Part shown: positions 9,060-51,106 of the stretch, piece by piece
Layout of the letters: the number at the start of each line of letters is the position of its first letter
Numbering within the stretch: position 1 is the first letter of the stretch
Assembly: GCA_963771615.1 (NCBI GenBank)
Contig: CAVYUD010000001.1
Span: 11,490 to 75,489 of the forward strand
Direction of reading: 5' to 3'
DNA length: 64,000 nucleotides
DNA from: an uncultured Gammaproteobacteria bacterium
GTDB taxonomy: Bacteria > Pseudomonadota > Gammaproteobacteria > Steroidobacterales > Steroidobacteraceae
Made by a program: the position numbers and the translations under genes
Notes under the pieces: generated by a model
What the model was told of the DNA's origin: nothing
Seen by the model: the letters and a program-made list of their open reading frames with translations, nothing else
The model's database searches: none

Positions 9060-9980
9060 TTGACGAGACCAGGCACTCATACGTCGTTCAGCCCCTTGAA
9101 GCAGATCGATGCGGGAGTCCTCAATGTTGGATACGCGGAAGAAGGACGCGGGGATGCTCCGCCGGTCATTCTCCTGCACGGCTGGCCCTACGATATTTAC
9201 AGCTATGCCGAGGTTGCCCCGCGTTTGGCCACAGCCGGCTACAAGGTCATCATCCCGTATCTACGCGGTTTTGGATCTACACGGTTTATCTCCGACAAAA
9301 CCTTGCGCAATGCTCAGCAGTCGGTGTTGGCTGTCGACACGATTGCCTTGATGGACGCGTTGCGAATCGAAACCGCGATTGTCGCTGGTTTCGATTGGGG
9401 AGCGCGGACGGCGAATATCGTCGCTGCGCTTTGGCCGAAGCGATGCAAGGGGCTCGTTTCAGTCAGTGGCTATCTGATCGGTAATCAGGAAGCGGGCAAA
9501 CTGCCATTGCCACCCAAGGCTGAGCTCCAATGGTGGTACCAATATTATTTTGCCACGGAACGCGGGCGCGCCGGCTACGAGAAATACCGATGCGAGTTTT
9601 CCAAGCTCATCTGGAGCGTCGCATCACCAAGATGGGAATTCACTGATGCGACCTTCGATCGTACGGCAGCGGCCTTCGACAATCCGGATCACGTCAGCAT
9701 TGTGATCGGCAATTATCGCTGGCGCCTTGGTCTGGCCGCAGGCGAGTCAAAGTACGACAATCTGGAAAAGCAACTTGCCGCAGGTCCGCTCATCGGCGTT
9801 CCCACGATCACCCTTGAAGGCGATGCCAACGGTGCGCCACACCTGGATGCCAGTTCTTATGCCGCGAAGTTCTCCGGCAAATACAAGCATTACATGATCA
9901 CGGGCGGTATCGGCCATAATTTGCCCCAGGAAGCTCCCCATGCCTTCGCCGACGCGGTCTTAGAAGTGGCTGGGTACTGA
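9060..9980 (+). CDS. Alpha/beta hydrolase (epoxide-hydrolase-like)
   Basis: Contains ...VILLHGWPYDIYSY...GFDWGAR... (nucleophile elbow with Asp) and ...GHNLPQEAP. TTG 9060 is the first plausible start after the upstream gene. The long 5' extension of ORF 8586..9980 overlaps that gene. Confidence 0.8.
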   Translation: MTRPGTHTSFSPLKQIDAGVLNVGYAEEGRGDAPPVILLHGWPYDIYSYAEVAPRLATAGYKVIIPYLRGFGSTRFISDKTLRNAQQSVLAVDTIALMDALRIETAIVAGFDWGARTANIVAALWPKRCKGLVSVSGYLIGNQEAGKLPLPPKAELQWWYQYYFATERGRAGYEKYRCEFSKLIWSVASPRWEFTDATFDRTAAAFDNPDHVSIVIGNYRWRLGLAAGESKYDNLEKQLAAGPLIGVPTITLEGDANGAPHLDASSYAAKFSGKYKHYMITGGIGHNLPQEAPHAFADAVLEVAGY

Positions 9981-11024
9981 TGGCTTACCGGCGGTCAGCA
10001 ATCGCAGCGCTGTGCGCAGCTTTCGCCTCGATGGCGCTGCCGCTGAATATAACGCCAGCAAAAAGCGGCGATATATCTATGCCTGCAGCCGGAGCGACTG
10101 AGTGGCTCAATACTTCACCGCAAACTTCCATCGATTTGCGAGGCAAGGTCGTTCTCGTCCAATTTTGGACCTACACCTGTGTCAATTGGCGAAGAACGCT
10201 CCCTTATATACGTGCATGGGATGCTAAATATCGTGGGCAGGGACTGGTCGTGATTGGCGTGCATACCCCGGAGTTTGATTTCGAGGAGGACGTCTCGAAT
10301 GTGCGTTCCCAGGTGGGAGAGATGCGCATTGAATATCCCGTTGCGATCGACAACAAACGCGTGATTTGGAATGCGTTCCATAACGTCTATTGGCCCGCTC
10401 TTTATCTGCTCGACGCTCAGGGACACGTCCGCTACCAACAATTCGGCGAAGGTGAGTACGGACGCACTGAGCGAGAGATTGCAGAAGTTGCTGGCCGAAC
10501 CTGGCGGCCATCCCTCGAACCAGCTTGCCGTAGTTGCGCCAGTCGGCGCCGAGGTCCCTGCGGATCTACGGAATCTAAGATCGCCGGAAAGCTACGTCGG
10601 CTATGAGATGGCAGAGAGGTTTGCTGCGCGCGGTGGAATAGTGCCGAACCGTCGCCATGAATATGTGGTGCCCCGTCGCCTATCCCTCAATGAATGGGCG
10701 CTGTCGGGAACCTGGATGATCGGGAGACAAGCGGCAGTACTCGAAGAAGCCAACGGGAAAATTGTCTACCGATTTCACGCTCGAGATCTCAACTTGGTAA
10801 TGGCTCCCTCCACATTGGGTACCCCGATTCGTTTTCGCGTCCTCATCGATGGCCATCCGCCAGGCACTGCACGGGGTGCGGACATCGACGAACAGGGATT
10901 TGGCACCGTCGGCGAGGCACGGATGTATCAATTGATACGACAGTCGGAAAAAATCGCCGATCGGGAATCCGTAATTGAATTTCTCACGCCTGGCGTGAGC
11001 GTGTACGACTTTACATTTGGATAA
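9980..11024 (+). CDS. Secreted thioredoxin-fold (redoxin / DipZ C-terminal-like) protein, one frameshift as sequenced
   Basis: ORF 9980..10606 has a signal peptide and FWTYTCVNWRRTLPY...VIGVHTPEF. It continues in ORF 10371..11024 (...LQKLLAEPGG...YDFTFG). The frame change lies near 10470-10490. Confidence 0.75.
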
Positions 11025-37388: not shown

Positions 37389-40086
37389 ATGAGACGGTTC
37401 ACCGTTACCGCTTTCGTATACCTGTTGGCATCAGCCGCCGCTTGGTCTGAAGATGCCACCCATCTCGCCGCTCCAGTCGCGAGCGCGAAGCGGCAGCCAC
37501 CGGCACGAGGCGAGTCAAGCCTGCCGTATTTGGACACCCGCCTTACGGCAGAGGAGAGGGCCACCGATTTGGTAGGCCGTATGACTCTCGCCGAGAAGGC
37601 CGCGGAGATGCAGAACAATTCTGCGGCAGTACCGAGACTCAACGTCCCCGCATATCAGTGGTGGAGCGAGGCGCTGCATGGAGTCATTAACGACGGTGTC
37701 ACCGAGTACCCTGAGCCCATCGGATTGGCGGCCAGCTTTGATGCGCCCGCCATCCACGCGATGGCGGCTCAGATCGGCATCGAGGGGCGGATAAAACACG
37801 TGCAAAATGCCCGCGAGGGACACACCGGAATCATGGGCGGGCTGGATTTTTGGTCGCCCAATCTGAATATTTTCCGAGATCCGCGCTGGGGCCGCGGCCA
37901 GGAGACCTACGGGGAAGACCCCTTCCTGACCGGACGCATGGGCGTCGCCTATGTGACCGGACTGCAGGGCGACGATCCGAGATACTACCTCGCCATTGCC
38001 ACCCCAAAGCACTTTGCGGTCCATAGCGGGCCGGAGCCGACGCGGCATTTTGCCGACGTCGATGTCAGCCTACACGATGAGCTGGATACCTATGAACCCG
38101 CATTTCGTGCGGCTGTCGTGGAAGGCAAGGCTGCCTCAGTGATGTGTGCGTACAACGCCATCAATGGAGAGCCGGCATGCGCCAACCAGCACCTGCTGCA
38201 GGACCAGCTGCGCGGCCGGTGGGGCTTCACCGGGTACGTGGTCTCTGACTGCGATGCGGTTCGAGACATCGCCGCCAGTCATCGTTACCGCACCACGCAG
38301 GCGCAGGGCGTTGCCATATCCGTCATTCGAGGCATGGACAACGAATGCGTCACCTTCACCTCGAGATTCGGAGAGCCCGTCGAAAAAGCCTATGTGGACG
38401 CCGTGCAGCAGGGATATCTGCCGGAAGCCAAACTCGACGCGGCGCTGATCCGCCTGTTCACGGCTCGAATCAAGCTGGGCATGTTCGACCCGGCGGGAAT
38501 GGTTCCCTATGCGGCGATCGACGAGAAAGAACTGGACAGCACTGAGCATCGTGCCCACGCGCTCAAGCTTGCCAACGAGTCCATGGTATTGCTGAAGAAT
38601 GACGGCACCCTCCCAATCAAGAGCACCACGCAAAATATCGTGGTGGTCGGTCCGCTTGCCAGCCAGACCAAGGTGCTGCTCGGCAACTATTCGGGAAGGC
38701 CGACCCACAGCGTCTCCATCCTCGACGGTCTGAAGAAGGAATTTCCGACCGCCAAGATCACTTTCGTTCCGGGAATCCAGTTTCTGCGCAACGACGGCGA
38801 GCCGGTTGCGGACTCCATGCTCAGCACTCCGAGCGGACAGGCTGGGCTGACGGCGAAATACGGCGAGCCGAAAGGTGGTTTTGATGTCGCATCCGAGAAA
38901 GCGCTCGTCACCAGGACCGAAACCAACATCAATCTTTCCCAGTCCAGCCTGCCTTCGTTGCTCGCCGGAAAAAAGATCGTCACCGTGGAATGGACCGGTT
39001 CGATCGCGGTGCCGGAAACTGGTGACTATCTACTCGGCATGCGCGGCGTCGGCATTGCCGACCTAACGATCGATGGTAAGCGAGTCGCAAACCTGGCGGC
39101 TTACGATGACGCGGAGGCGGCCACGGGCCGAGTTCATTTCGTCCAGGGCCAGAAAGCCGCATTGACCGTGCATTACCGCAGCATGCCCAATGCACCGCGA
39201 CTCCAGCTCATCTGGGCAAGGGTCGATGACGATGTCTCTCCCGACGCCCTCACAGCCGCCCGCGGAGCCGACCTGGTGGTCGCTGTCGTCGGCATCACCA
39301 GCAGGCTTGAGGGTGAGGAAATGCCGGTCTCGATTCCGGGGTTTCTGGGCGGAGATCGAACCAGCATTGATCTGCCCCAACCGGAGGAAGCGCTCCTTGA
39401 AGCGATCGCCGGCACCGGCAAGCCCCTGGCCGTGGTCCTTCTGAATGGCAGTGCGCTCGCAGTCAACTGGATGAGCAGCCATGCCAATGCCATTCTTGAA
39501 GCATGGTATCCGGGCGAGGAGGGCGGGACGGCCGTCGCAAAAACGCTGAGCGGTGAAAACAATCCTGCCGGCCGGCTGCCGGTAACCTTCTACACCGGCG
39601 TTGAGCAGCTGCCTCACTTTGAAGATTACGGAATGGCCAACCGGACCTATCGTTATTTCGAGGGCAAGCCGCTTTATCCATTCGGATACGGGCTTGAGCT
39701 ATACGACCTTCAGCTACAGTGGCCTTCGCATTCCCATGCGCCCCGTGGCGGCGGGACAATCAGTCAACGCTGAAGCGACGGTCACCAACACCGGGAGGCT
39801 GGCGGGAGACGAGGTCGTTCAACTTTATCTTCAATTCCCGCCGGTCAAGGGGGCGCCGCTCGTCGCTCTTCGCGGCTTCGAGCGCGTCCATCTCGAGCCG
39901 GGTGCAAGCCGGCAGGTTCATTTTGAGTTGAAGAGCCGTGATTTGGGAATGGTCACGGAGGCTGGAAATCCGATCGTCGCCTCGGGGGACTACCGGGTCA
40001 GCATCGGCGGCGGTCAGCCGAATACCACTGCTGCCGTCGCGAGCGGGAAGTTCACCATCGATGGGCAGATCGCCCTGGCCGAATAG
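37389..40086 (+). CDS. Secreted glycoside hydrolase family 3 beta-glucosidase (BglX-like) with a PA14 insertion, one frameshift as sequenced
   Basis: KHFAVHSGPE and GFTGYVVSDCDAV (nucleophile Asp) motifs, a PA14-like segment at about 38800-39200, and a C-terminal Fn3-like domain in ORF 39601..40086 (GLSYTTFSYS...). The shift is at the G-run 39690-39692. Confidence 0.85.
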
Positions 40087-40456
40087 CGGATCGGGGCTAG
40101 TAGGACTATCGTAGAACCAGCAACGCGACGGAGAAAACAGAGGTAGTGGGAAAATTAGCCACCATGCGATGCCGCCGATCGCGATGGTCACCAATACGAA
40201 GCGGCGATCGTCGGTCGAACCAATGCTCTGTGAGTGCGCGCTCATCGCCTGAAATTGAACGGTCGTCATCTGCCGCAGAACTTCGTTGTCTCCCATGGTG
40301 GTAGGCGACCTTGGCGTCCCATTCGATTGCGATGAGATGCCGGCCGATTCGCAGCGGGGCGGGGCGGCGAAAGTAAGCGTTTTGTACGTATTTTCGACCA
40401 ACGAAAACAAATGACTCCGTAGAGCCTCAAGGAGATAGCGTAAGTCATTGTTTTGA

Positions 40457-40475
40457 TGGCTCCCCGGGACGGATT
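40457..40475. repeat. 19-nt copy of the tRNA-Asn 3' end (TGGCTCCCCGGGACGGATT): att remnant
   Basis: Identical to 51032-51050. With a 1-nt gap the match extends to GTTTTGA upstream (40450-40475 versus 51024-51050). Confidence 0.7.
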
Positions 40476-40620: not shown

Positions 40621-41909
40621 TGTAGTACCTGACACATAGCTTACTGCATATACCGGAGACATCGTTTACACCTCAAGGCTTTGGGAGTGCCCCAATGCCG
40701 TGGAAGGAGTGTAAGCGGATGGATGAACGGCTTCGTTTTGTGGCCCGCCTACTGGATGGGGAGAACATGTCTCGAGTGTGCCGAGAGTTTGGCATCTCTC
40801 GTCCTACGGGCTACAAAATATTCAACCGCTACAAGGATCTGGGTTACCAAGGATTGCTCGACCGCAGTCGACGTCCCTACCGACACGCCAACAAGCTGCC
40901 TTTCCAGCTCGAGAGTGCGATTGTTAGGCTGCGCACCGAACATCCGAGTTGGGGCGCTGCGAAGATCCGTGAGAAGCTGCTGCGCGCTTTCCCCATGGTG
41001 CCGGCGCCGGCCAAAAGCACCGTGCACGCGGTGCTGGATCGCAACGGCCTAGTCGAGCGGCGCAAACGCCGACGCCACAAAGCCCAAGGCACTTCTCTTA
41101 CCGATCCGAGTTCACCAAACCAACTCTGGTGTGCAGACTTTAAAGGCGAGTTCATGCTCGGCAATCGCCTGTACTGCTATCCGCTGACAATCAGCGACTA
41201 CAGCTCTCGATACCTGCTGGCCTGCGAGAGCCTCGAGTCGACCAAGTCTGCTTTTGCCTTTAACGTCTTTGAGCGAGTTTTTAAGGACTTCGGACTGCCC
41301 AGCGCCATCCGCAGCGACAACGGTGTTCCCTTCGCCTCACCCAACGCTCTGTTCGGGTTGAGCAAGCTTGCCGTATGTGTGGCTACGCTTAGGCATCCAG
41401 ATCGAGCGCATTAAGCCCGGACATCCTCAGCAAAACGGACGCCATGAACGCATGCACTTGACGCTGAAGAAGGAAGCCACCAAGCCGGCCTCCTTCAACT
41501 TCCTGCAGCAGCAGAGTCGCTTCGATAAGTTCATCGAGGTTTACAACTCGCAACGACCCCACCAAGCCCTCGGCATGCGCTACCCAGCGGAACTGTATAC
41601 ACCCTCTGTTCGCCCTTACCGCGACCCTGAGCCGCCGCAGTATCCCTTCCACGATCGCACCGTGTGTGTCACGCAATGTGGTCGAATCTGCATCGGAAAG
41701 CGAAAAATCAACTTGAGCCAAGTCTTCTCCGGTCAACTCCTGGGTATCCGCGAGGTAGATGAGAAAATCTGGCTTGTCAGCTTCTTGGATTTTGACTTAG
41801 GTTACTTCGATGAGACGGAGGGACGGGTCGAACCAGGCCCCAATCCCTTCGCCGCAAAAGTGTTAACGATGCCACCGGTATAGTCTGTAAAGGATGTGCC
41901 CGGTACAGA
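40621..41909. mobile_element. IS481-family insertion sequence (~1.29 kb)
   Basis: Imperfect terminal inverted repeats: TGTAGTACCTGACACATAGCTTAC at 40621-40644 versus the reverse complement of 41887-41909. They flank a DDE transposase gene. Confidence 0.7.
40695..41883 (+). pseudogene. IS481-family DDE transposase, one frameshift
   Basis: ORF 40695..41414 has an HTH and the first part of the catalytic core (LWCADFKGEF...IRSDNGVPF). ORF 41368..41883 continues (IERIKPGHPQQNGRHERMH...). The shift lies near 41370-41385. Confidence 0.8.
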
Positions 41910-41919
41910 CCGTGCTGAA

Positions 41920-41964
41920 TGGCTCCCCGGGACGGATTCGAACCGCCGACCAACGGATTAACAG
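41920..41964. repeat. 45-nt perfect direct repeat of the tRNA-Asn 3' end (distal att site of the capsid-encoding element)
   Basis: TGGCTCCCCGGGACGGATTCGAACCGCCGACCAACGGATTAACAG is identical to 51032-51076. Confidence 0.85.
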
Positions 41965-42112
41965 GGCCTAACTTCGCGCATTCTTCTTACGGTTGCGCAC
42001 GTAACTGCAAGATAATAAAGCACATCAGAAGCGGCAATAACGCTGCTTTTTCAGCTATTCCGAAGTGCGTTGCAACACGGTTGCAACTCAAACGAACCGC
42101 GAGTGACGGGAG

Positions 42113-42898
42113 TCAGACTTGGGTGGGAGGCTGCGGATCACTAAAGTCCCTGCCAACCTTGCGTCTCTTTCGCCATTTGTTAACGAGCCTGCGCAAACAT
42201 CGGCGCCACCAGGCAGCTTTCCTCGTACTGGCGGGCGGCGACACTCCACGGGCTGGCGCCGTCGGTGTGTACCTCATTATCAAACCGGTCGGAAATACCA
42301 GACTGAGGACCTCACTGAGTTGCGTCGATATTGAGAGCAGTGCCTCAACGGTCCTAGGAATGTCAGCCTGCAGGTTTCCGGTGAGTTGCTTCAATTGCTG
42401 TACAAGATCAAATCCGACCATTTCCTCGACAACATGACTCGGCACGGATTCGCTCGGGCGCAGAACCTCTCGCGCGCGCTCTTGGAATCTCAAGTGAGTT
42501 TCATTGCGCATTTTGTTTGCCGCCAGAATGGAAAGGAAGGCCCTCTCGACCAATGACAATCTATTCAAGATGTCTGCATCGTGCGATTTGAGCAAGAATC
42601 CCAAACGGTCCATTGGGAGCGTCGATCGTTCATTCCACACAATCGTCATCGGAAGGTATTCGATATAGACAGGGTCTCGTTTCAATTTGCTACGCACCTC
42701 CAATGCTCTATCGACAAACGCCTGCTGATCATAATTGCGAATGACCGAATACATCTGTGCGAGGACCATGATCGCTTCGTTTCCGGCCGCAAGGTTCTCA
42801 CGATGCTTCTCGCTGCCTCGCCGTACAGCCTCCAATGCGAAGGCGGCGACTGCAAAAAAAGCCGCTCCAAACTCTGCATATGGGGTGGACTCGCTCAT
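42113..42898 (-). CDS. Cargo protein C, hypothetical (261 aa, predicted all-helical, basic tail)
   Basis: ORF with about 50% GC. The start lies 4 nt after the stop of the 70-aa ORF. No recognisable domain. Confidence 0.55.
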   Translation of the reverse strand: MSESTPYAEFGAAFFAVAAFALEAVRRGSEKHRENLAAGNEAIMVLAQMYSVIRNYDQQAFVDRALEVRSKLKRDPVYIEYLPMTIVWNERSTLPMDRLGFLLKSHDADILNRLSLVERAFLSILAANKMRNETHLRFQERAREVLRPSESVPSHVVEEMVGFDLVQQLKQLTGNLQADIPRTVEALLSISTQLSEVLSLVFPTGLIMRYTPTAPARGVSPPASTRKAAWWRRCLRRLVNKWRKRRKVGRDFSDPQPPTQV

Positions 42899-42902
42899 TT
42901 TC

Positions 42903-43115
42903 TCACTTCCCTACCCGCGCGGCTTGAGCCGGTAAAGGCCGGTTTCTTTCCAGACTTCGATTACATCGCGTTTCGCGAGTAGTTCTGCGGCTTTCTTCGT
43001 CGCTTCGAGGCTTCCGATCTAGCCATTTGTCCGGGCGATCCGACGCCCATTCGAGCATTGCGAGCATTTGCTCCTGCACCAGGCGTTCTTGTCGCGTAAG
43101 TTTTTTCGCTGTCAA
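42903..43115 (-). CDS. Cargo protein B, small hypothetical (70 aa, charged)
   Basis: ATG 43115 overlaps the stop of the upstream gene (ATGA). Translational coupling on both sides supports that it is a real gene. Confidence 0.45.
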   Translation of the reverse strand: MTAKKLTRQERLVQEQMLAMLEWASDRPDKWLDRKPRSDEESRRTTRETRCNRSLERNRPLPAQAARVGK

Positions 43116-43969
43116 GCGCTGCCTGCGGGTCGACGAAATTCTTCGTCGGCTTCATTTCCATCCGTGTGCGCCGCTAGGCTGGGACCCATTACCCCGAGTG
43201 GTCCACCCGTGTAAAAGCGGTACCGAGTAAACCTGTCGTTCCCGAATGCGTCACGATAGCGGATTTCGCCAAACACAAAAATTGCTTTTTTCCCGCTCCG
43301 AAGATCTCCTAAAACTTCAGTGCTCAACACAACCCCCGATACCCAGAAAATAGCTCTGTTAGAGGAAGGACCCATGCTCGCTTTTGAGATTTTCGGATCA
43401 TCAAATCGAGCCTTTGGCACAAGTTCCGTTATTAAGGGCCAATCAACGAGTTCTGTACTTATTGTCGCTTGGGCGTCGTAAGCTGGCGTCTGGCCAAAGT
43501 TTCTAAATTCGATAACTACACCTGTCCCGCCACCAGCAAATATTGTTCGGTTAGGCTCTATGAAGTTGCTATTTGCGTCCGCCGCGACAATCCTTGCGTT
43601 CTCAACAAAAACATCCGCCCGCAATTGCCTCACTGCTGTTCTTTCCGCATCTTCAACCAGGTTTCCGGTTGATCGCCAAAGCCGGTAGGTAAAGATTGCT
43701 AAGGCGGCTGTTATAACTGCGAGGGCCCCAGTCCCAACAGCAGTCCAAAATTCGATCCTGGATTTTCGCGTTTCTCTGTCATTTTCCAGACGAGTCTCCG
43801 TCAGAGGCTTGCTGATGATGATTGGCTGATCTGCAGTTCCGCGCCTGTCAGTCTCCGCCGTCGGATTAGGGTAGGCATCCGGGATTTCCGGAATGATGGT
43901 GGCGTGCGCAATTGCGAATGCGAGTAATCCCGTAAATGTCAGTCCGTGCCGCATCTTGTGGAGGCTCAT
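43112..43969 (-). CDS. Cargo protein A, hypothetical membrane protein (285 aa, two TM segments plus a ~170-aa beta-rich C-terminal domain)
   Basis: TM1 LTFTGLLAFAIAHATII and TM2 FWTAVGTGALAVITAALAIFTY. C-terminal domain ...VVIEFRNFGQTPAYD...IFVFGEIRYRDAFGNDRFTRYRFY. Confidence 0.55.
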   Translation of the reverse strand: MSLHKMRHGLTFTGLLAFAIAHATIIPEIPDAYPNPTAETDRRGTADQPIIISKPLTETRLENDRETRKSRIEFWTAVGTGALAVITAALAIFTYRLWRSTGNLVEDAERTAVRQLRADVFVENARIVAADANSNFIEPNRTIFAGGGTGVVIEFRNFGQTPAYDAQATISTELVDWPLITELVPKARFDDPKISKASMGPSSNRAIFWVSGVVLSTEVLGDLRSGKKAIFVFGEIRYRDAFGNDRFTRYRFYTGGPLGVMGPSLAAHTDGNEADEEFRRPAGSA

Positions 43970-44068
43970 GCGCCAATTGTAGCGGGCCGGTGTTGAAAAA
44001 GACCGTCCAATGTTGCGACCAGCCCTGCGGCCATTTCACAGATACCCGATCTGCGCTACATTCGCGGA

Positions 44069-44374
44069 GTGCTGATCGGCGCGAAAGTCCGAATCGATCC
44101 CAACACACCGTGCGGCGATTGCCCGCACGCGCCCAGCTGCGCCGCTTCTGGCATGGTCTGCGTGGCCTTTAATTGCTTCATAAGCAGCGGCTACTCAAGC
44201 CAGCGCTGGCGATCGCTGCCGCGAGAGCCAAGCGCAGCGATGACAGCGCACTCGCAGCAGCTGCATAGAAAGCAAACGGAGATGGAGCTTAAATGGCTGG
44301 CGAAGTTCGAGAAGCGCCAGGCGCGAAGGGGAAAGGCCACCAACTCGAGTCGCCCCGAATCGGTGGCCTGCTGA
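44069..44374 (+). CDS. Possible Cys-rich small protein (101 aa), convergent with the capsid gene
   Basis: ORF only (GTG start). No homology recognised. It could be non-coding. Confidence 0.3.
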   Translation: MLIGAKVRIDPNTPCGDCPHAPSCAASGMVCVAFNCFISSGYSSQRWRSLPREPSAAMTAHSQQLHRKQTEMELKWLAKFEKRQARRGKATNSSRPESVAC

Positions 44375-45522
44375 TCAAGCCAGCGCGACGACCTGCACAG
44401 CGTGCGCGTCGCCTACGGATAATTGCCCTCGAAGCTCGGCCAGGTAGGTGAATAGGTTCTCGGTGAACTGCGAGCCCGTATAGCCGATTAGGAATTGAAT
44501 TTCCTGCCGATCCAGTATCTCGACCAGCTGCGTATCCAGCACAATCGCATGGCCCGCCGCCAGACCAGGCGTAGAGACAATCTTTGCGTTGTTCCAGAGG
44601 GCGCTCGGCGCGGTTGCATCTACGTACTCACCAGTGGTCGCCCGCTCGGAAATGATATTGAAATAGTCGCTGGAATTCACTATCACCAAATCCGCCGCGT
44701 ATCCGTAAGGCGGAAGGCCGTTGTAGACTGCATCGCCGATTTTGTCCCGATTCTTTGTCGCGGCCGACGTGAATGCGGTGCCCGCGTTCACTAAGCCAGT
44801 GATATGCCCATCGCTGGCGCTGCCTGAGCCGCTGATGATCAGATTCTCGTACTTGCGCAGCACGAAGAACGAGAGCCAGGACTGCAGGAAAGCTGGCAAT
44901 GACGAAACATCATCCAGCAGCTGGCGGCTTGCATTCAGGAAGGTCGCAACCGTCGCCATCGGCAAGCTTGCGTGTGAACGGACATAGTGCTTTCGCCCTT
45001 CGCGCCGCCCTGGAATTCCTGGACGGCCGATCCATCGCTGCTGCTGGTAACTTCGGGGACAATCGCCGTGCCTGCTCCTGTCGGCCGATGCGGCAACGCC
45101 TGAAGCACTTGCAGTTTTCTGCCGGGCGAAGAAATTGGGACTGGCGAAATAAATTCTGTCGGCGTCGGGAAGCCGTCTTCCGGCGAAGATCCGCTGGTGC
45201 CGGTCGAGACAAGGACGGATTTGATCAGCATCGACAGCGAGCCCTTCTGGGTCAGCTGAATCTGGCGCGTCTCGCCCTTGCGCAGCTGCTCGATCTTCGG
45301 ATCAGCGGCAAGCAATTCGCCGAAGTTTAGGCGGCCGCCGGCGCCACGATTGCCGCCGCTGCGGACGCTCTTCGCGACCTTCTGCTCAAGATCCAGAATG
45401 CGCGCATCGGTGGCCTTGGTGTAATCGCCGAGTTCGGCCAACTGCTTATCGACCTTCAGGCCGGAAGCCTTCGCTGCATCGCCGATTTCGCCGATAGATT
45501 TCGTGATCGTTGCAAGATCCAT
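44375..45522 (-). pseudogene. HK97-fold phage major capsid protein, one frameshift as sequenced
   Basis: ORF 44935..45522 has an N-terminal coiled delta-like region (...DARILDLEQKVA...). ORF 44375..44965 carries ...TFLNASRQLLDD...IISGSG...GLV... and a C-terminal A-domain. The shift lies near 44960-44970. Confidence 0.85.
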
Positions 45523-45525
45523 AAA

Positions 45526-46188
45526 TTAATTCCTTGAATTGAAGTTTTGAGTAGCGCGCCTCGCTGCGGCAAGCACCGCCGTGATTTCTTGCGCGTCGAA
45601 TTTGGGTTCGTGATCGTCTTCCGCCAAAAGCGGGCCGCACGCCTTTGCAATTTTCTCGGCCAGGCGGCGCGGCATCGGCGGAAGCTCGCCTTCGCGTAGC
45701 AAGCGCTCAAGATCTGCGCCTGCGAGATTCTTCACCGCCAAGATTCGCGATTCTCGATTCGATGGCGCTGCGACGGCGCTGATTTCGACCAGATCGACGC
45801 GCTTGAAGCGCTTGCCGCCGCCAGAAATGGCTTCCACATGCCCATCGTGCGGCATGAATCCGACGCTTAGCGAAAGCTGATTGGCGCGCGCAAGGGCCAA
45901 CGCGCGGTCCGCAGATGGCGTGCCGGGTATGATTCGACCTTCGACGTGCAGGCCTTCGTCGGTTTCTTCAGCGCTTGTGATGCCGCCCAGCTGGTCGCGC
46001 TCCGAGTGATTGTTCAAAAGCGGGATGCGCTGCTTACCGGAATGCAGCGCGGCGATTGAATCGGCGAAAGCACCAGGCAAAATCTCGTCGCCATGACGAT
46101 CTCGCGCCCAGCTCGATGCGAACCCTGCGAATGTGCCTGAATCGGCTGCGGGCGCGAATTTTAAAATCAATGGCTGCGAAAAGATCAC
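45526..46188 (-). CDS. HK97-family prohead protease (S78/U35)
   Basis: ...FAGFASSWARDRHGDEILPGAF... (catalytic His region) and ...LSLSVGF... (Ser region). It sits immediately upstream of the capsid gene. Confidence 0.85.
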   Translation of the reverse strand: MIFSQPLILKFAPAADSGTFAGFASSWARDRHGDEILPGAFADSIAALHSGKQRIPLLNNHSERDQLGGITSAEETDEGLHVEGRIIPGTPSADRALALARANQLSLSVGFMPHDGHVEAISGGGKRFKRVDLVEISAVAAPSNRESRILAVKNLAGADLERLLREGELPPMPRRLAEKIAKACGPLLAEDDHEPKFDAQEITAVLAAARRATQNFNSRN

Positions 46189-47113: not shown

Positions 47114-47386
47114 TCATGGCGATTTGCCTTCGAGCGCCGCATAGCTCGCGATTTGAAAGTGGAGTAGGCCGCTCCATCCGCAGCCGCACTCAGCGATGCG
47201 GCTGTTAGGCAAATCGACATACCACCATCGAAAGCCGCGCACGCCATTGGGCGTTCGCTGCGTGTGCGCGATATGGTTGTGAACAATGGCCCGCCCTGCG
47301 ATCCGTTCGGGCATTCTTCGTCCTGCGATCCGTTCGGGCATTCTTCGTTCTTCTGGCATTCCTCGCTGCGCTTTTGTTGTCTTCAT
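47114..47386 (-). CDS. Hypothetical protein (90 aa) containing a duplicated RRMPERIAG segment
   Basis: ORF. Contains the perfect 27-bp tandem duplication at 47295-47348. Confidence 0.4.
   Translation of the reverse strand: MKTTKAQRGMPEERRMPERIAGRRMPERIAGRAIVHNHIAHTQRTPNGVRGFRWWYVDLPNSRIAECGCGWSGLLHFQIASYAALEGKSP
47295..47348. repeat. Perfect tandem duplication, 2 x 27 bp (CCTGCGATCCGTTCGGGCATTCTTCGT)
   Basis: Read directly. It is in-frame within ORF 47114..47386. Confidence 0.9.
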
Positions 47387-47750: not shown

Positions 47751-48494
47751 TCAATGCAGCGCTCCCGATTCGGACAGCGAAAGCTTGAGGCGCTCGACGT
47801 CCTCGATCGGCAGATTGTATTCACGGGCGAACCAAGTCAGCGCCTGGCTTGGAACGGCCGCCATCACTTCAAGCGCGAGCTTCTCGCGCTGATCCTTCGG
47901 CAGATCTGAAAATTCAGCTTTGCCTTTCATGACCCTCCGCAGCGTTGGCGGCCTGGCTGCTGGCGCTTCGGGCTTCGAGCTTTTTTTTTCCAAATCTTCC
48001 GGCGCGCGCGGTGCGGCAGCTTGCTGCTGCACATTACATGTACGATTATTTGGAGGGTTACCTGAAGAGTTAAGAGAAGAGTTAGTCGGCAATCCTTGCC
48101 GGGCGTCGTGTCGTAGATTGCCGGGCGTCGGGTCGTCATTTGCCGGGCGTTCCCACTTTGGGTCATCTACCCAGGGTTTTGACGTACGCAATCCGGCCAG
48201 CCGATCGGGAATCGTGGCCATGTACTCGTGAACGAACCAAGCTTTGCCCTTCTGCGCCTTCTGATAGATCCTGAGCCACTCTGCGTCTGCCGCTAGATTG
48301 AGGTGAGTGCGAACCGATCGCACGCTCAGTCCGGCTCGCTTGGCGATAAGCTCCTGGGCTGGGAAAGCGTTTTCGCCGACCTGATTCATATGCAGGGAGA
48401 GCACCAAAAGCACCAGCCGAGTACTCGGATCTGACGGACCATTTTCGCTTGCGATCAATTCGCGCCATTGCCAGCGCTCACACTCAAGCGCCAT
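47751..48494 (-). CDS. Winged-helix replication-initiator-like protein
   Basis: N-terminal ...RLVLLVLSLHMNQVGENAFPAQELIAKRAGLSVRSVRTHLN... wHTH, as in phage/plasmid replication organiser proteins. Low-complexity linker. Confidence 0.55.
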   Translation of the reverse strand: MALECERWQWRELIASENGPSDPSTRLVLLVLSLHMNQVGENAFPAQELIAKRAGLSVRSVRTHLNLAADAEWLRIYQKAQKGKAWFVHEYMATIPDRLAGLRTSKPWVDDPKWERPANDDPTPGNLRHDARQGLPTNSSLNSSGNPPNNRTCNVQQQAAAPRAPEDLEKKSSKPEAPAARPPTLRRVMKGKAEFSDLPKDQREKLALEVMAAVPSQALTWFAREYNLPIEDVERLKLSLSESGALH

Positions 48495-48636
48495 TGCGCG
48501 CAGCCACTACTTCAATCATCGCTTGTCCGTCCCGTATCCGTTCCAAGCCTAAAAGAAACGCGCCGAATATCCGGCGACCGATCAGCTTCAAAAAGACGCA
48601 GCGCTTGATTACGGGTCAAGCGCTGCGCGATTCCGA

Positions 48637-48885
48637 TCAGGGCTGTGCTGCCGCGGCTTCTTTGCGCTGGCGATTCGGCGCTGTGCCGGTGCCAAGAAAT
48701 TCCAACGCCTCGGCTGCAGATAGGTCGTATGCAAAGCCCGCCACCGCAAAATTCGATGCGAGATCAACGATCATAAATTTCCCGTGATTGCTGGCTGACC
48801 CGAGATGCCGCCGGCTTTTTCGAAGTCGGTAGCCATGCGCTTTGGCTGCTCGCTGCGCGCGCGCGATCTGCTTACCGGCGCTCAT
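48637..48885 (-). CDS. Small hypothetical protein (82 aa) ending ...APNRQRKEAAAAQP
   Basis: ORF. 4-nt overlap with the upstream ORF. Its C-terminal tail is encoded by the 35-nt repeat. Confidence 0.45.
   Translation of the reverse strand: MSAGKQIARAQRAAKAHGYRLRKSRRHLGSASNHGKFMIVDLASNFAVAGFAYDLSAAEALEFLGTGTAPNRQRKEAAAAQP
48647..48681. repeat. 35-nt direct repeat, copy 1 (GCTGCCGCGGCTTCTTTGCGCTGGCGATTCGGCGC)
   Basis: 34 of 35 nt identical to 48892-48926, with 245-bp spacing. Confidence 0.85.
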
Positions 48886-49169
48886 GCCGATGCTGCCGCC
48901 GCTTCTTTGCGCTGGCGATTCGGCGCGATAGAAAAGCTGGCGACGTTGGCGGTGTGGAGTTCAAGCCAGCGCTGGTATCGGCTGCCCAGCACAATCAATT
49001 CGCGGCCGACGCGGGCAAGCGCGCCCGCTTGGATCAGTGAATCCCGATTGGCGCGAACGACGTACGCGGCGCGCGAGCAGGAATTGGGGTAAATGTGGGC
49101 GGGCCAGTCGGCGATCGTCCAGGAATCTTGCTGCGCGAATTTGCGCGGCTTCGGGGTCTTGGCAGGCAT
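48882..49169 (-). CDS. Possible excisionase/DNA-binding protein (95 aa) ending ...APNRQRKEAAAASA
   Basis: ...LIQAGALARVGRELIVLGSRYQRWLE resembles Xis/AlpA-type wHTH C-termini. The position near the integrase fits. Confidence 0.45.
   Translation of the reverse strand: MPAKTPKPRKFAQQDSWTIADWPAHIYPNSCSRAAYVVRANRDSLIQAGALARVGRELIVLGSRYQRWLELHTANVASFSIAPNRQRKEAAAASA
48892..48926. repeat. 35-nt direct repeat, copy 2
   Basis: See copy 1. Confidence 0.85.
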
Positions 49170-49268: not shown

Positions 49269-49724
49269 CTACTTGTTTTTGGCTGTCAAATCGCCCTCAG
49301 CTTCGGCGGTGATTTTGTAGATCTGGGAGTTGGTGAGCGCCAGCGATGATACCCAGTCAAGGCGGAATAGCTCGCGCATTGCATCGGATCGCTCGAAGCC
49401 CTTTTTGCGAATCTTCAGATATTCCTTTTTCAATTTCGCATGATCATTTTTCTTTCGACGCGCCTTACCTGAAGCTTTGCCAGCAGCACTCGCGCGCTTC
49501 GCGGTGGCGCTGCCTTTGCCTGATGCGATGGCGGCGTCAAAGGCCGCTTGATATTCGTCCATCGCGGCTTTCATGCTTTGCAAATCGCCGATCCTGATCG
49601 ACTCGGACACCCGCGCAGCATGGATTTCGTGCGCACGCTTCGCTTCGTCTGAAGCAGCATCGATCACCGATACAAGATCAGCGATTGCCTTCGCAATCGG
49701 GGCTGGCTTCGCCTTGCCGCTCAT
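49269..49724 (-). CDS. Hypothetical protein (151 aa, Ala/Lys-rich)
   Basis: ORF with a 4-nt overlap with the integrase stop. No domain recognised. Confidence 0.45.
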   Translation of the reverse strand: MSGKAKPAPIAKAIADLVSVIDAASDEAKRAHEIHAARVSESIRIGDLQSMKAAMDEYQAAFDAAIASGKGSATAKRASAAGKASGKARRKKNDHAKLKKEYLKIRKKGFERSDAMRELFRLDWVSSLALTNSQIYKITAEAEGDLTAKNK

Positions 49725-50830
49725 TTGCCGCCCAACGCTTTATCAAGCGCGGCATGGCCAGTCACCGCCTTCGTGTCGACCAGGTGCGCATACCGCGCCG
49801 TTACAGCTGGCGATCGATGGCCGAGGACGCTGCCGATTTCCAGCAGGCTTGCGCCATTGGCGGCCAGGAGCGAAGCGCAGCTGTGGCGAAGATCGTGCCA
49901 GCGGAATCCCTGCAGGCCCGCAGCTGCGCGGATGCGGCGCCAGAATCGTTCGACCCACCATTGCGTCGCGGGCTCGCCGCGCTCATTGATGAACACGGCC
50001 GATGTAGAAACGACATTCGCGCGCTTCAGATCCCGAAGGGCAGCGGCAGCGGAGGAGGGCAGGTGCGCGCCGCGCGCGTCGCCATTCTTCGAAATGAGGA
50101 TCCGAAGCGATTGCGCCTCGAAATCGACATCAGCCCACTTCAGGCGCAGCAATTCCCCCTTTCGCAAGCCGGTGGCGATCGAGACCAGCACCGCCGCATA
50201 CATCGTCGGGCCCTGATCCTTCGCGGCGGCCAGGACGCGCGGAAGCTCGAGTTCGGTCAGATGCCGGGTGCGCGGCCGCCGTTCTGTCAGCAGCAGGCGC
50301 GGCGGCCAGACCTGATTCTCTGCCAAGTATCCGGAGGCGCGGCCCCAATTCCAGGCCGATCGAAGCGCCGATAGGTACCGATTGATCGTCGCGGGCGCGA
50401 TGCCGGTCTGCGCAAGCTTGTCTCGCGCATCGCGAAGGGTGACCACGCCGACTTCGCGGATTCGCTTCTCGCCGATCTTATTGACCCACCAAGCCAGCCG
50501 GGCGCACGAATCCTTGTAGGAAAGCAGCCGCTGCGCTTCAGGGTCCGCCAGGTAGGCTGCGGCCAGCTGCGAGACCGTCAGGCTCGTAAGATCGGGCCGC
50601 GCATCGCCTGCCTTGCGCCGCTCAGCGATCAGCTTCGTTTTTTCGGCATCGGCCCAGGCGGCCGCATCATCTTTGCTGCGGAAGGTCTGCGATCGCGCGT
50701 GGAAGGGGCGCACGCGGACCATGGCCACCCAGGCTATCGATCCGTCCTGATTGACGCGGCGCTTGACGTTGCCCTTCCAGCTTCGCTTTGAAGCTGATCG
50801 GGATCGGGCCGTATGATTGGCGGTATCCAT
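49721..50830 (-). CDS. Tyrosine recombinase / phage integrase
   Basis: SAM-like N-domain. Catalytic residues sit in ...ATGLRKGELLRLKW..., ...WHDLRHSCASLL... and ...LGHRSPAVTARYAHL. Adjacent to tRNA-Asn. Confidence 0.9.
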   Translation of the reverse strand: MDTANHTARSRSASKRSWKGNVKRRVNQDGSIAWVAMVRVRPFHARSQTFRSKDDAAAWADAEKTKLIAERRKAGDARPDLTSLTVSQLAAAYLADPEAQRLLSYKDSCARLAWWVNKIGEKRIREVGVVTLRDARDKLAQTGIAPATINRYLSALRSAWNWGRASGYLAENQVWPPRLLLTERRPRTRHLTELELPRVLAAAKDQGPTMYAAVLVSIATGLRKGELLRLKWADVDFEAQSLRILISKNGDARGAHLPSSAAAALRDLKRANVVSTSAVFINERGEPATQWWVERFWRRIRAAAGLQGFRWHDLRHSCASLLAANGASLLEIGSVLGHRSPAVTARYAHLVDTKAVTGHAALDKALGGK

Positions 50831-51031
50831 TGCAGCACCTCGATTGCTGTAGCGGCTAGGCCCTGGTCGATCCTTGCCGGGATCGATCGGGGCTGATTCT
50901 CAAGGCGCGCACTAGGCGCGTAGACGCGAATATGCGCCGCTCTGGGAGGCAGTTGCAACATGGCTTGCAACACGGCAATGCTGGCGAACCGCGGAAAGCG
51001 GCTTAAATACCTGTATTCACTGCGTTTTGAT

Positions 51032-51106
51032 TGGCTCCCCGGGACGGATTCGAACCGCCGACCAACGGATTAACAGTCCGTCGCTCTACCACTGAGCTAC
51101 CGGGGA
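51032..51106 (-). tRNA. tRNA-Asn (GTT), CCA encoded
   Basis: Manual fold: acceptor TCCCCGG/CCGGGGA, anticodon stem ACGGA/TCCGT, loop CTGTTAA, T-arm GGCGG-TTCGAAT-CCGTC. Confidence 0.9.

Follow-up and report, generated by a model that had tools for sequence, protein, structure and literature searches.

What do three short, tightly packed open reading frames (ORFs) at the far end of a phage-derived element have to do with one another? They lie in a 64,000-nucleotide (nt) stretch of DNA from an uncultured gammaproteobacterium of the Steroidobacteraceae (contig CAVYUD010000001.1; hereafter "the window", meaning the whole stretch), within an integrated element of 9.1 kb and close to its distal attachment (att) site. 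The original prediction, made from the sequence alone, took them for one translationally coupled cargo operon, whose products, one in the membrane, one a small partner and one soluble and helical, could form a membrane-acting abortive-infection-type system. We find that the three ORFs, called A, B and C below, have separate evolutionary distributions and that the trio is not conserved. The reading we favour, with a probability of about 0.7, is that the ORFs are no three-component system and that they occupy the variable end, given over to accessory genes ("morons" or cargo), of a partly decayed, phage-derived element integrated at a tRNA-Asn gene. The ORFs themselves are present where they had been placed, co-oriented on the minus strand:

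43112-43969, minus strand: ORF A, 285 amino acids (aa)
42903-43115, minus strand: ORF B as read, 70 aa, with a TTG as its only start
42113-42898, minus strand: ORF C, 261 aa
43970-44068: divergent intergenic region of 99 nt between A and a Cys-rich ORF

The 4-nt gap reported between the stop of B as read and the ATG of C is indeed there (GAAA, 42899-42902), and a Shine-Dalgarno-like GGAAGTGAG stands ahead of that ATG. The first junction had been described as an ATGA overlap; it reads TTGA, the TTG start of B lying over the TGA stop of A. Judging from the ORF layout, the intergenic region at 43970-44068 is likely the promoter region of A-B-C; a scan of 41850-44500 for sigma-70 consensus promoters and terminators gave nothing above chance, and an Rfam scan gave nothing in the three-ORF region. 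The GC content of the three ORFs is 0.528, against 0.594 in the rest of the element and 0.582 in the whole window, so that the claim of a lower value holds in direction, while the quoted "~50% versus ~60%" overstates the gap. At third codon positions (GC3), the values are 0.49 for A and 0.59 for C, compared with 0.63-0.74 for neighbouring and backbone genes.

The comparative evidence separates the three ORFs. None of the 63 A-family loci in species-representative genomes has a B or C homologue within 8 kb, A is absent from all of the approximately 14 C loci (0/~14), and the three-gene arrangement is conserved nowhere else. B and C stand together elsewhere in two loci only (L001 and L002; locus numbers denote related loci), with an extra 252-aa gene between them; most C loci have no B, and most B loci have no C. 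The proposal that A-B-C is one translationally coupled, membrane-acting abortive-infection-type system, with A as the effector, B as a small partner and C as a sensor or regulator, draws on the shared orientation, the tight packing, the lower GC and the cargo position of the ORFs, as well as on the neighbouring B and C of L001 and L002 and on two further loci (L084 and L089) in which an A-family gene lies within ~1-1.5 kb of B. Besides the lack of any second trio, what speaks against it is that gene order and neighbours differ in every related locus, that B is frameshifted in the window and is ~20 times more abundant than C, and that no PADLOC model matches A, B or C at E<=1. We consider such a system very unlikely; as a three-gene system the finding does not hold, and nothing new of that kind is claimed here.

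The middle ORF had been described as a 70-aa charged protein, a small partner of its neighbours. It is instead a frameshifted copy of a conserved gene of 68 aa. Only residues 1-31 match the 74-aa protein of L001 (tblastn and blastn), and at the DNA level the homology between the window and L001 (74%) persists through the rest of B. The pairwise DNA alignment places a 2-nt deletion in B (window GACAAATGG--CTAGATC versus L001 GACAAATGGCACAAGATC), and the 3' half of the gene was located by tblastn with the repaired or orthologous B protein together with this alignment:

43023-43115, minus strand: 5' part of B, codons 1-31, with the TTG start
43019-43022, minus strand: frameshift site of B, CTAG in the window versus CACAAG in the orthologue
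42911-43018, minus strand: true 3' half of B, in the other frame, encoding IGSLEATKKAAELLAKRDVIEVWKETGLYRLKPRG* and ending in a TAG stop (42913-42911)

At the frameshift position, W31-H-K-I-G is conserved across the family alignment (29 members of ~68 aa), and repaired B, at 68 aa, aligns with the family end to end. The "charged protein" is thus an artefact, because it is read through the frameshift and its charged tail is out of frame; the true stop of B lies 12 nt from C. Past B, the window runs straight into the C homologue and skips the 252-aa gene that intervenes in L001. The family comprises at least 336 clusters; its members are mostly 67-70 aa long, share 70-85% identity and come from metagenome-assembled genomes (MAGs) of Steroidobacteraceae and other Gammaproteobacteria, as well as from three viral contigs. 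Neither repaired nor as-read B has a match in Pfam, PHROGs, PADLOC or NCBIfam, and a profile search of the family alignment against PDB sequences returned nothing meaningful. With a net charge of ~+5, B is a basic protein; its sequence appears winged-helix-like, with no family match. Truncated or remnant copies of B also occur in L088, L089 and L090. The annotation of the window is corrected accordingly: the middle "gene" is a broken copy of a conserved small gene, either inactivated by the 2-nt deletion or mis-assembled.

In L100, an intact full tailed prophage, the order runs from the tailspike through a Cys-rich gene, genes for proteins of 75, 90 and 149 aa, B, a 216-aa transmembrane protein and a GT2 glycosyltransferase gene on the opposite strand to the integrase (int). 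From this gene order we take it that the conserved part of the late operon ends with B, beyond which come a variable region and the int/att end. What follows B changes from locus to locus:

Window: C
L001: a 252-aa transmembrane protein, then C; B overlaps the next gene by 8 nt
L093: a 372-aa PD-T7-5/PD-T7-1-like protein (9201-10319) overlapping the B stop
L092: a GT1-like protein
L084 and L089: A-family genes
L085, L088 and L090: unrelated ORFs

The unrelated ORFs, that of L100 included, measure 216, 220 and 172 aa. The 372-aa gene of L093 matches the PADLOC models PD-T7-5 (E=1.1e-19) and PD-T7-1 (E=6e-14), both single-gene anti-phage systems, the name being listed among defence systems in the literature. 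The original placing of accessory cargo at the att-distal end of the element is therefore upheld: the region adjoins att, the content of the equivalent slot varies among relatives and includes the PD-T7-5-like gene, and the composition of the three ORFs departs from that of the backbone. In practical terms, B offers an anchor for finding the cargo slot of a prophage family of soil bacteria, one such slot holding a known defence gene. A conserved pair of genes for 89-aa and 185-aa proteins was also seen in L001 (3319-4126) and L089 (8151-8988), its position relative to B and C shifting between the two; the 185-aa protein has a faint retropepsin-like (gag-asp_proteas) match. Reappearing small modules and changing slot genes are the pattern of a mosaic accessory region.

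B and the gene downstream of it might instead be a functional pair, with B as a regulator, adaptor or antitoxin, so that B-C would be a module and A unrelated to it. Consistent with this, B is always co-oriented with the next gene and close to it or overlapping it (8 nt in L001, stop over start in L093, 12 nt in the window), and its basic, putatively winged-helix-like sequence would suit a regulator. The downstream partners are mutually unrelated while B itself is 70-85% identical, which fits a backbone gene better, and C lacks B in most of its loci. Moreover, intact ORFs follow the broken copies of B in the window, L088, L089 and L090, which argues against an essential antitoxin. We judge a functional pair improbable. 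Its special case, a type II toxin-antitoxin pair with B as antitoxin and C as toxin, was rejected, the pairing not being exclusive and B being frameshifted beside an intact C.

The gene that fills the slot in the window, C, is a genuine gene of a rare superfamily. A word-seeded search among 5.8e9 proteins returned 16 homologues, up to 70% identical (best E = 1e-113), and the dN/dS ratio (nonsynonymous to synonymous substitution rates) of ~0.16, measured against L001 and L003, places the family under purifying selection. A full profile search reached 899 representatives at E<=1e-3, of which 317 pass E<=1e-10; at 50% identity the superfamily amounts to ~900 clusters, for which there is no Pfam family. 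The AlphaFold2 (AF2) model of C (mean predicted local distance difference test, pLDDT, 82) has helices at 7-72, 110-145, 163-201 and 230-249. A hydrophobic anchor helix at the N-terminus is followed by a bundle of long helices, and the C-terminal helix (KAAWWRRCLRRLVNKWRKRR) is basic and amphipathic. The all-helical part of the earlier description thus stands; "soluble" does not, since the N-terminal hydrophobic helix (AAFFGAVAAFALEAxRR) is conserved. Further conserved motifs are AGNEA, LGFLLxSxDPDILNRL and RNxxH, and in the close family the C-terminal helix reads KAAWWRRxLRxxVNxWR. In the window, C is full length and keeps the invariant residues of the family, except for one nearly invariant Gly that is missing from its first helix.

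C itself has no match in Pfam, PHROGs, PADLOC or NCBIfam; 92 members of the superfamily gave no Pfam family and no consistent PADLOC match, and among ten superfamily clusters the only name was "hypothetical protein", carried by one. A profile search of the family alignment against PDB sequences found nothing meaningful, and Foldseek gave nothing below E=0.2 in the PDB or 0.017 in BFVD; low-probability matches to generic helical bundles and BAR-like folds were not used.

The company that C keeps is mobile. Its loci are 2 from genomes and 6 from metagenomes, and the scan of viral contigs had none. An integrase, a recombinase or an att site lies within 3 kb of C in 5 of 8 independent contexts. 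In L003 and L004, C is found at a prophage end beside the integrase, with a DUF4236 gene just upstream; L082 also has an integrase nearby; elsewhere, C stands between two integrases together with ParDE, beside a serine recombinase, in a P63C phage operon, or by itself in an island that also carries NACHT, Fic and DUF2130 genes. The upstream partner varies, being DUF4236 in L003 and L076, transmembrane proteins in L001 and none in L005. The DUF4236 proteins, with a C-terminal transmembrane helix, lie directly upstream of C at L003 7681-8004 and L076 177-481 and, at two independent loci, are the sole recurrent neighbour of C apart from B. Taken with the model, these contexts suggest that C is an inner-membrane-anchored helical bundle from a rare superfamily that occurs mostly beside integrases and recombinases, with changing neighbours.

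A is likewise a genuine gene, with 34 homologues in the 5.8-billion-protein set (best E = 5e-35). It probably starts at the second ATG (43954), which would give a protein of 280 aa as in its homologues. The AF2 model (pLDDT 82) agrees with the original description of two transmembrane helices and a beta-rich C-terminal domain: a signal-like or transmembrane helix (4-23), a disordered linker, a transmembrane segment within helix 58-116 and a beta-sandwich (120-255). Across the family the N-terminus is variable, the signal-like helix and low-complexity linker being often absent, and the core consists of the transmembrane helix and the motifs RQLRAYV, NxGQTPAYD, GEIRYRDAF and the C-terminal EGNEAD. 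In the window, A is full length and keeps every invariant residue of the family.

There is no Pfam, PHROGs, PADLOC or NCBIfam match for A, and a profile search of its alignment against PDB sequences returned nothing meaningful. Foldseek against the PDB gave generic immunoglobulin (Ig)-like matches alone (E>=3.5e-3, TM-scores 0.2-0.3), among them the KirBac cytoplasmic domain, TRAP, the Wzt carbohydrate-binding domain, ApaG and CEP192. The transmembrane helix and beta-sandwich of A do align to KirBac3.1 chains (E ~5e-3, probability 0.97-0.99), with TM-scores of 0.24-0.29; unlike KirBac, however, A has a single transmembrane segment before the domain and neither pore helix nor selectivity filter. 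Membership in that family was rejected, equally good matches to unrelated Ig-like domains indicating a generic fold. On this model, A is best described as a putative single-pass membrane protein (plus the signal-like helix) with a cytoplasmic Ig-like beta-sandwich.

Besides the 63 genome loci, which belong mainly to soil Alphaproteobacteria and Acidobacteriota, 6 loci are in IMG/VR viral contigs. Only two families recur among the nearest neighbours, IS1595 transposases in 8 loci and DUF6471 in 3; otherwise these neighbours are unrelated housekeeping genes. In three loci, terminal inverted repeats enclose an IS1595 transposase and the A homologue, and the A family is therefore a passenger of an insertion sequence (IS) there: perfect repeats of 25 nt in L013 (306-2166), repeats of 29 nt in L016 (5783-8861) and of 23 nt in L033 (85-1864), those of L013 and L016 beginning with GGCGA. 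Passenger genes are a feature of IS1595-family insertion sequences ("transporter IS" in the ISfinder classification), and A homologues directly after a DDE_Tnp_IS1595 transposase inside terminal inverted repeats resemble them; the window copy differs in that it lies in a prophage remnant. Around it (43112-43969), neither a transposase nor inverted repeats were found, and an IS1595 passenger unit was accordingly rejected for the window. Elsewhere, A-family genes were seen in a prophage accessory region, beside McrBC, next to barnase/barstar genes and a fragment of an IS, and close to where viral contigs end.

An integrase lies near 2 of 72 A-family loci; by this tblastn test, which is insensitive, A is not integrase-linked. 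The A-family genes of L084 and L089 are 26-28% identical to that of the window, with all motifs kept. The family is thus autonomous, found as orphan insertions, inside IS1595-type elements as a passenger and at the ends of prophages; very divergent alleles lie near B in two further loci. Homology of A to the cargo protein that follows B in L100, likewise a transmembrane-plus-beta protein, was rejected (hhalign probability 0.9%). As an observation on the family, five alphaproteobacterial MAG loci (L027, L036, L039, L056 and L069) share an arrangement that ends in an A-family gene: a 145-153-aa protein, an IS1595-type transposase-like gene on the opposite strand, a 75-120-aa protein and A. The cluster of 75-120-aa small proteins matched DUF6471 in 3 A-family loci.

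Could A and C serve the life cycle of the element itself, as lysis (holin- or spanin-like), virion or assembly proteins? Both are predicted membrane proteins at the end of a block of late and structural genes, and C, with its N-terminal transmembrane helix and long helices, is superficially i-spanin-like. Yet family scans detected no endolysin or holin family in the element, next to A and C or elsewhere; A is carried by insertion sequences and lies among housekeeping genes, and C is also found outside phages, in islands that carry ParDE, NACHT or Fic genes. By tblastn, both are absent from 50,697 phage genomes, and they have no match in sequenced plasmids either. A structural match to a virion protein, which would have spoken against cargo, was found for neither (Foldseek against the PDB for both, against BFVD for C). 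A role in the life cycle is extremely improbable, and a phage lysis cassette was rejected on the same grounds, that is, the missing endolysin and holin and the non-phage contexts.

With these results, we return to the accessory end of a decayed element. B is a conserved 68-aa basic protein of a prophage family in Steroidobacteraceae-like Gammaproteobacteria, presumably a backbone protein of a small DNA-binding type (a regulator or a recombination-directionality-type factor) and no partner of A or C. C fills the variable slot between B and att. A and C would work independently of each other on the cytoplasmic side of the inner membrane, to the benefit of the lysogen, and most plausibly they would exclude or abort infection by other phages or mobile elements; exclusion or abortive defence is put first because of the location in the slot and the one known defence gene found there. 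A defence or exclusion function for A and C, each on its own, is a tentative possibility. A stronger version, in which the slot after B is a previously unrecognised accessory or defence hotspot of soil Steroidobacteraceae-like prophages and the A and C families are new single-gene, membrane-acting anti-phage or exclusion determinants, we regard as doubtful.

Several observations weigh against this picture. Searches of Pfam, NCBIfam, PHROGs, PADLOC and PDB sequences with A, B and C gave no match to any family of defence, exclusion or toxin proteins or of enzymes, and the structural searches (Foldseek against the PDB for A and C, and against BFVD for C only) give no function. The argument for a defence hotspot comes down to one PD-T7-5-like neighbour among ~11 B loci, and the nearest neighbours of the A family are mostly housekeeping rather than defence genes. 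An A-family gene near B in the window, L084 and L089 makes some functional link between A and the B backbone possible. The overlap of A and B and the 12 nt between the true B stop and C fit co-transcription. Finally, the capsid gene of the element and B are broken and C lacks its Gly, as expected of a decaying element, so that the copies in the window may be non-functional.

Among known kinds of locus, the moron or accessory hotspot at the ends of temperate phages and satellites comes nearest. Accessory and defence hotspots of this kind, for example in P2 and P4, have reportedly been described by Rousset et al. (2022) and Fillol-Salom et al. (2022). The slot in the window is similar in its position, with the last conserved late gene (B) on one side and att/int on the other, in that its content varies among relatives, in the GC and GC3 of its cargo, which are below those of the backbone, and in the PD-T7-5-like gene in the same slot of L093. 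A promoter and terminator of its own would be a further mark of such a region; here the consensus scan gave nothing above chance, and a 99-nt divergent intergenic region precedes A. The slot differs in its Steroidobacteraceae-like soil hosts and in its anchor gene, neither known to have been described before, and in that A and C match no known defence family. From ~11 loci, hotspot status for the slot after B is suggestive. The PD-T7-5-like gene of L093, directly after B, occupies the place held by C in the window, whereas C has no similarity to PD-T7-5. Prophages also encode inner-membrane proteins for superinfection exclusion or abortive infection, such as HK97 gp15, P22 SieA and lambda RexB. 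Like these, A and C would be small to medium membrane-anchored proteins encoded by single accessory genes near prophage ends; no sequence or structural similarity to them was detected, and the comparison is one of analogy, not membership. What the analysis provides is two uncharacterised membrane-protein families, defined by motifs, confident AF2 models and mobile-element contexts, one of them an IS passenger. Should either family turn out to serve exclusion or defence, the list of single-gene systems would grow modestly, and there would be a case of such a gene being moved by an insertion sequence.

The element that carries these genes has at either end a copy of a 46-nt direct repeat, which corresponds to the 3' part of tRNA-Asn. 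Its recognisable features are the following:

41919-41964, no strand assigned: distal att repeat, a 46-nt copy of the 3' part of tRNA-Asn; end of the element, 148 nt past the C stop
44069-44374, plus strand: small Cys-rich ORF, 101 aa, C-x2-C-x6-C-x6-C, a conserved small gene of the element family
44375-45522, minus strand: HK97-type major capsid gene, split in two ORFs (Pfam Phage_capsid E=8.6e-13, C-terminal half)
45526-46188, minus strand: prohead serine protease (Peptidase_S78, E=1.9e-15)
47751-48494: HTH_36 protein, in the element
49721-50830, minus strand: tyrosine integrase (Pfam Phage_integrase E=4.3e-31), at the tRNA-proximal end of the element
51032-51106, minus strand: tRNA-Asn, with the proximal att repeat at 51031-51076

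Extended to 54 nt, the repeat pair (41911-41964 and 51023-51076) is 94% identical. The three ORFs had been placed after the capsid gene and next to the distal att site; they do lie between the two, with one correction, namely that A does not directly follow the capsid gene, because the opposite-strand Cys-rich gene lies between them, divergent from A and convergent with the capsid gene. The Cys-rich family (PC-x2-C-x6-C-x6-C-xAF) was seen near B, C and integrases in either orientation, with homologues at L003 9094-9507, L093 7921-8250, L100 4767-5063 and L001 4215-4475; it has no match in Pfam, PHROGs or NCBIfam and may be a zinc-binding regulator.

A capsid-forming satellite (capsid-forming phage-inducible chromosomal island, cf-PICI-like) combines an integrase with genes for capsid, protease, portal, head-tail connector and small terminase in a compact island. 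The element has the integrase, the S78 protease and the split HK97 capsid gene, and Pfam matched no portal or terminase family among the element ORFs tested; in the related locus L084, a 450-aa ORF of no assigned family lies upstream of the protease. The element is no less likely to be what remains of a prophage after deletions than to be a capsid-forming satellite.

How far the element has decayed bears on whether A and C still have a role. Four broken genes lie within ~6 kb: B, the capsid gene, an IS481-type transposase gene and a chromosomal GH3 gene. Frame analysis resolves the capsid gene into ORFs at 44935-45522 and 44375-44965, with a frame break near 44960-44971. The reduced B of L088, L089 and L090 and the split capsid gene favour real decay; the small indels in the chromosomal GH3 gene and in the nearby IS481-type transposase gene favour assembly error. 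On one account, A and C are hitch-hiking remnants in a dying element, non-functional debris with no current role, as the split capsid gene, the frameshifted B, the IS481-type element just outside att, the missing Gly of C and the failure to find portal or terminase among the ORFs tested would suggest. Against this, both genes are full length and keep all invariant residues except that Gly, the C family has a dN/dS of ~0.16, and the frame breaks could be assembly errors, the chromosomal GH3 gene being broken too. Accessory genes, moreover, often outlive structural genes in defective prophages. We consider debris unlikely, and accessory cargo at the end of a partly decayed element the better account.

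The remaining observations concern the breaks and repeats themselves. The GH3 beta-glucosidase gene (37389-40086, plus strand) is split near 39688, where one extra nucleotide seems to have been inserted (CTT-G-AGC, in a stretch that should encode GYGLSYTTF). Across the window there are just two exact copies of the 12-mer GCAAGCTTGCCG, at 41362-41373 (plus strand) and 44960-44971 (minus strand), and both stand at frame breaks of unrelated genes, the IS481-type transposase and the HK97 capsid gene. Chance may account for this, as may an artefact of mutation or assembly common to both sites, or some other cause. In the regulatory or replication part of the element, near helix-turn-helix (HTH) genes, two tandem 27-nt repeats in perfect register (47292-47345) are 96% identical, and a pair of 48-nt direct repeats (48634-48681 and 48879-48926, 245 nt apart) is 88% identical; both sets may be iterons or operator sites. 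Outside the element, by 1463 nt, there is a third copy of the att/tRNA-Asn repeat, 20 nt long (40456-40475), and the IS481-type transposase gene, split in two ORFs (40695-41883), lies between it and the att copy at 41919-41938. This may be what is left of an earlier tandem integration that the insertion sequence then entered.

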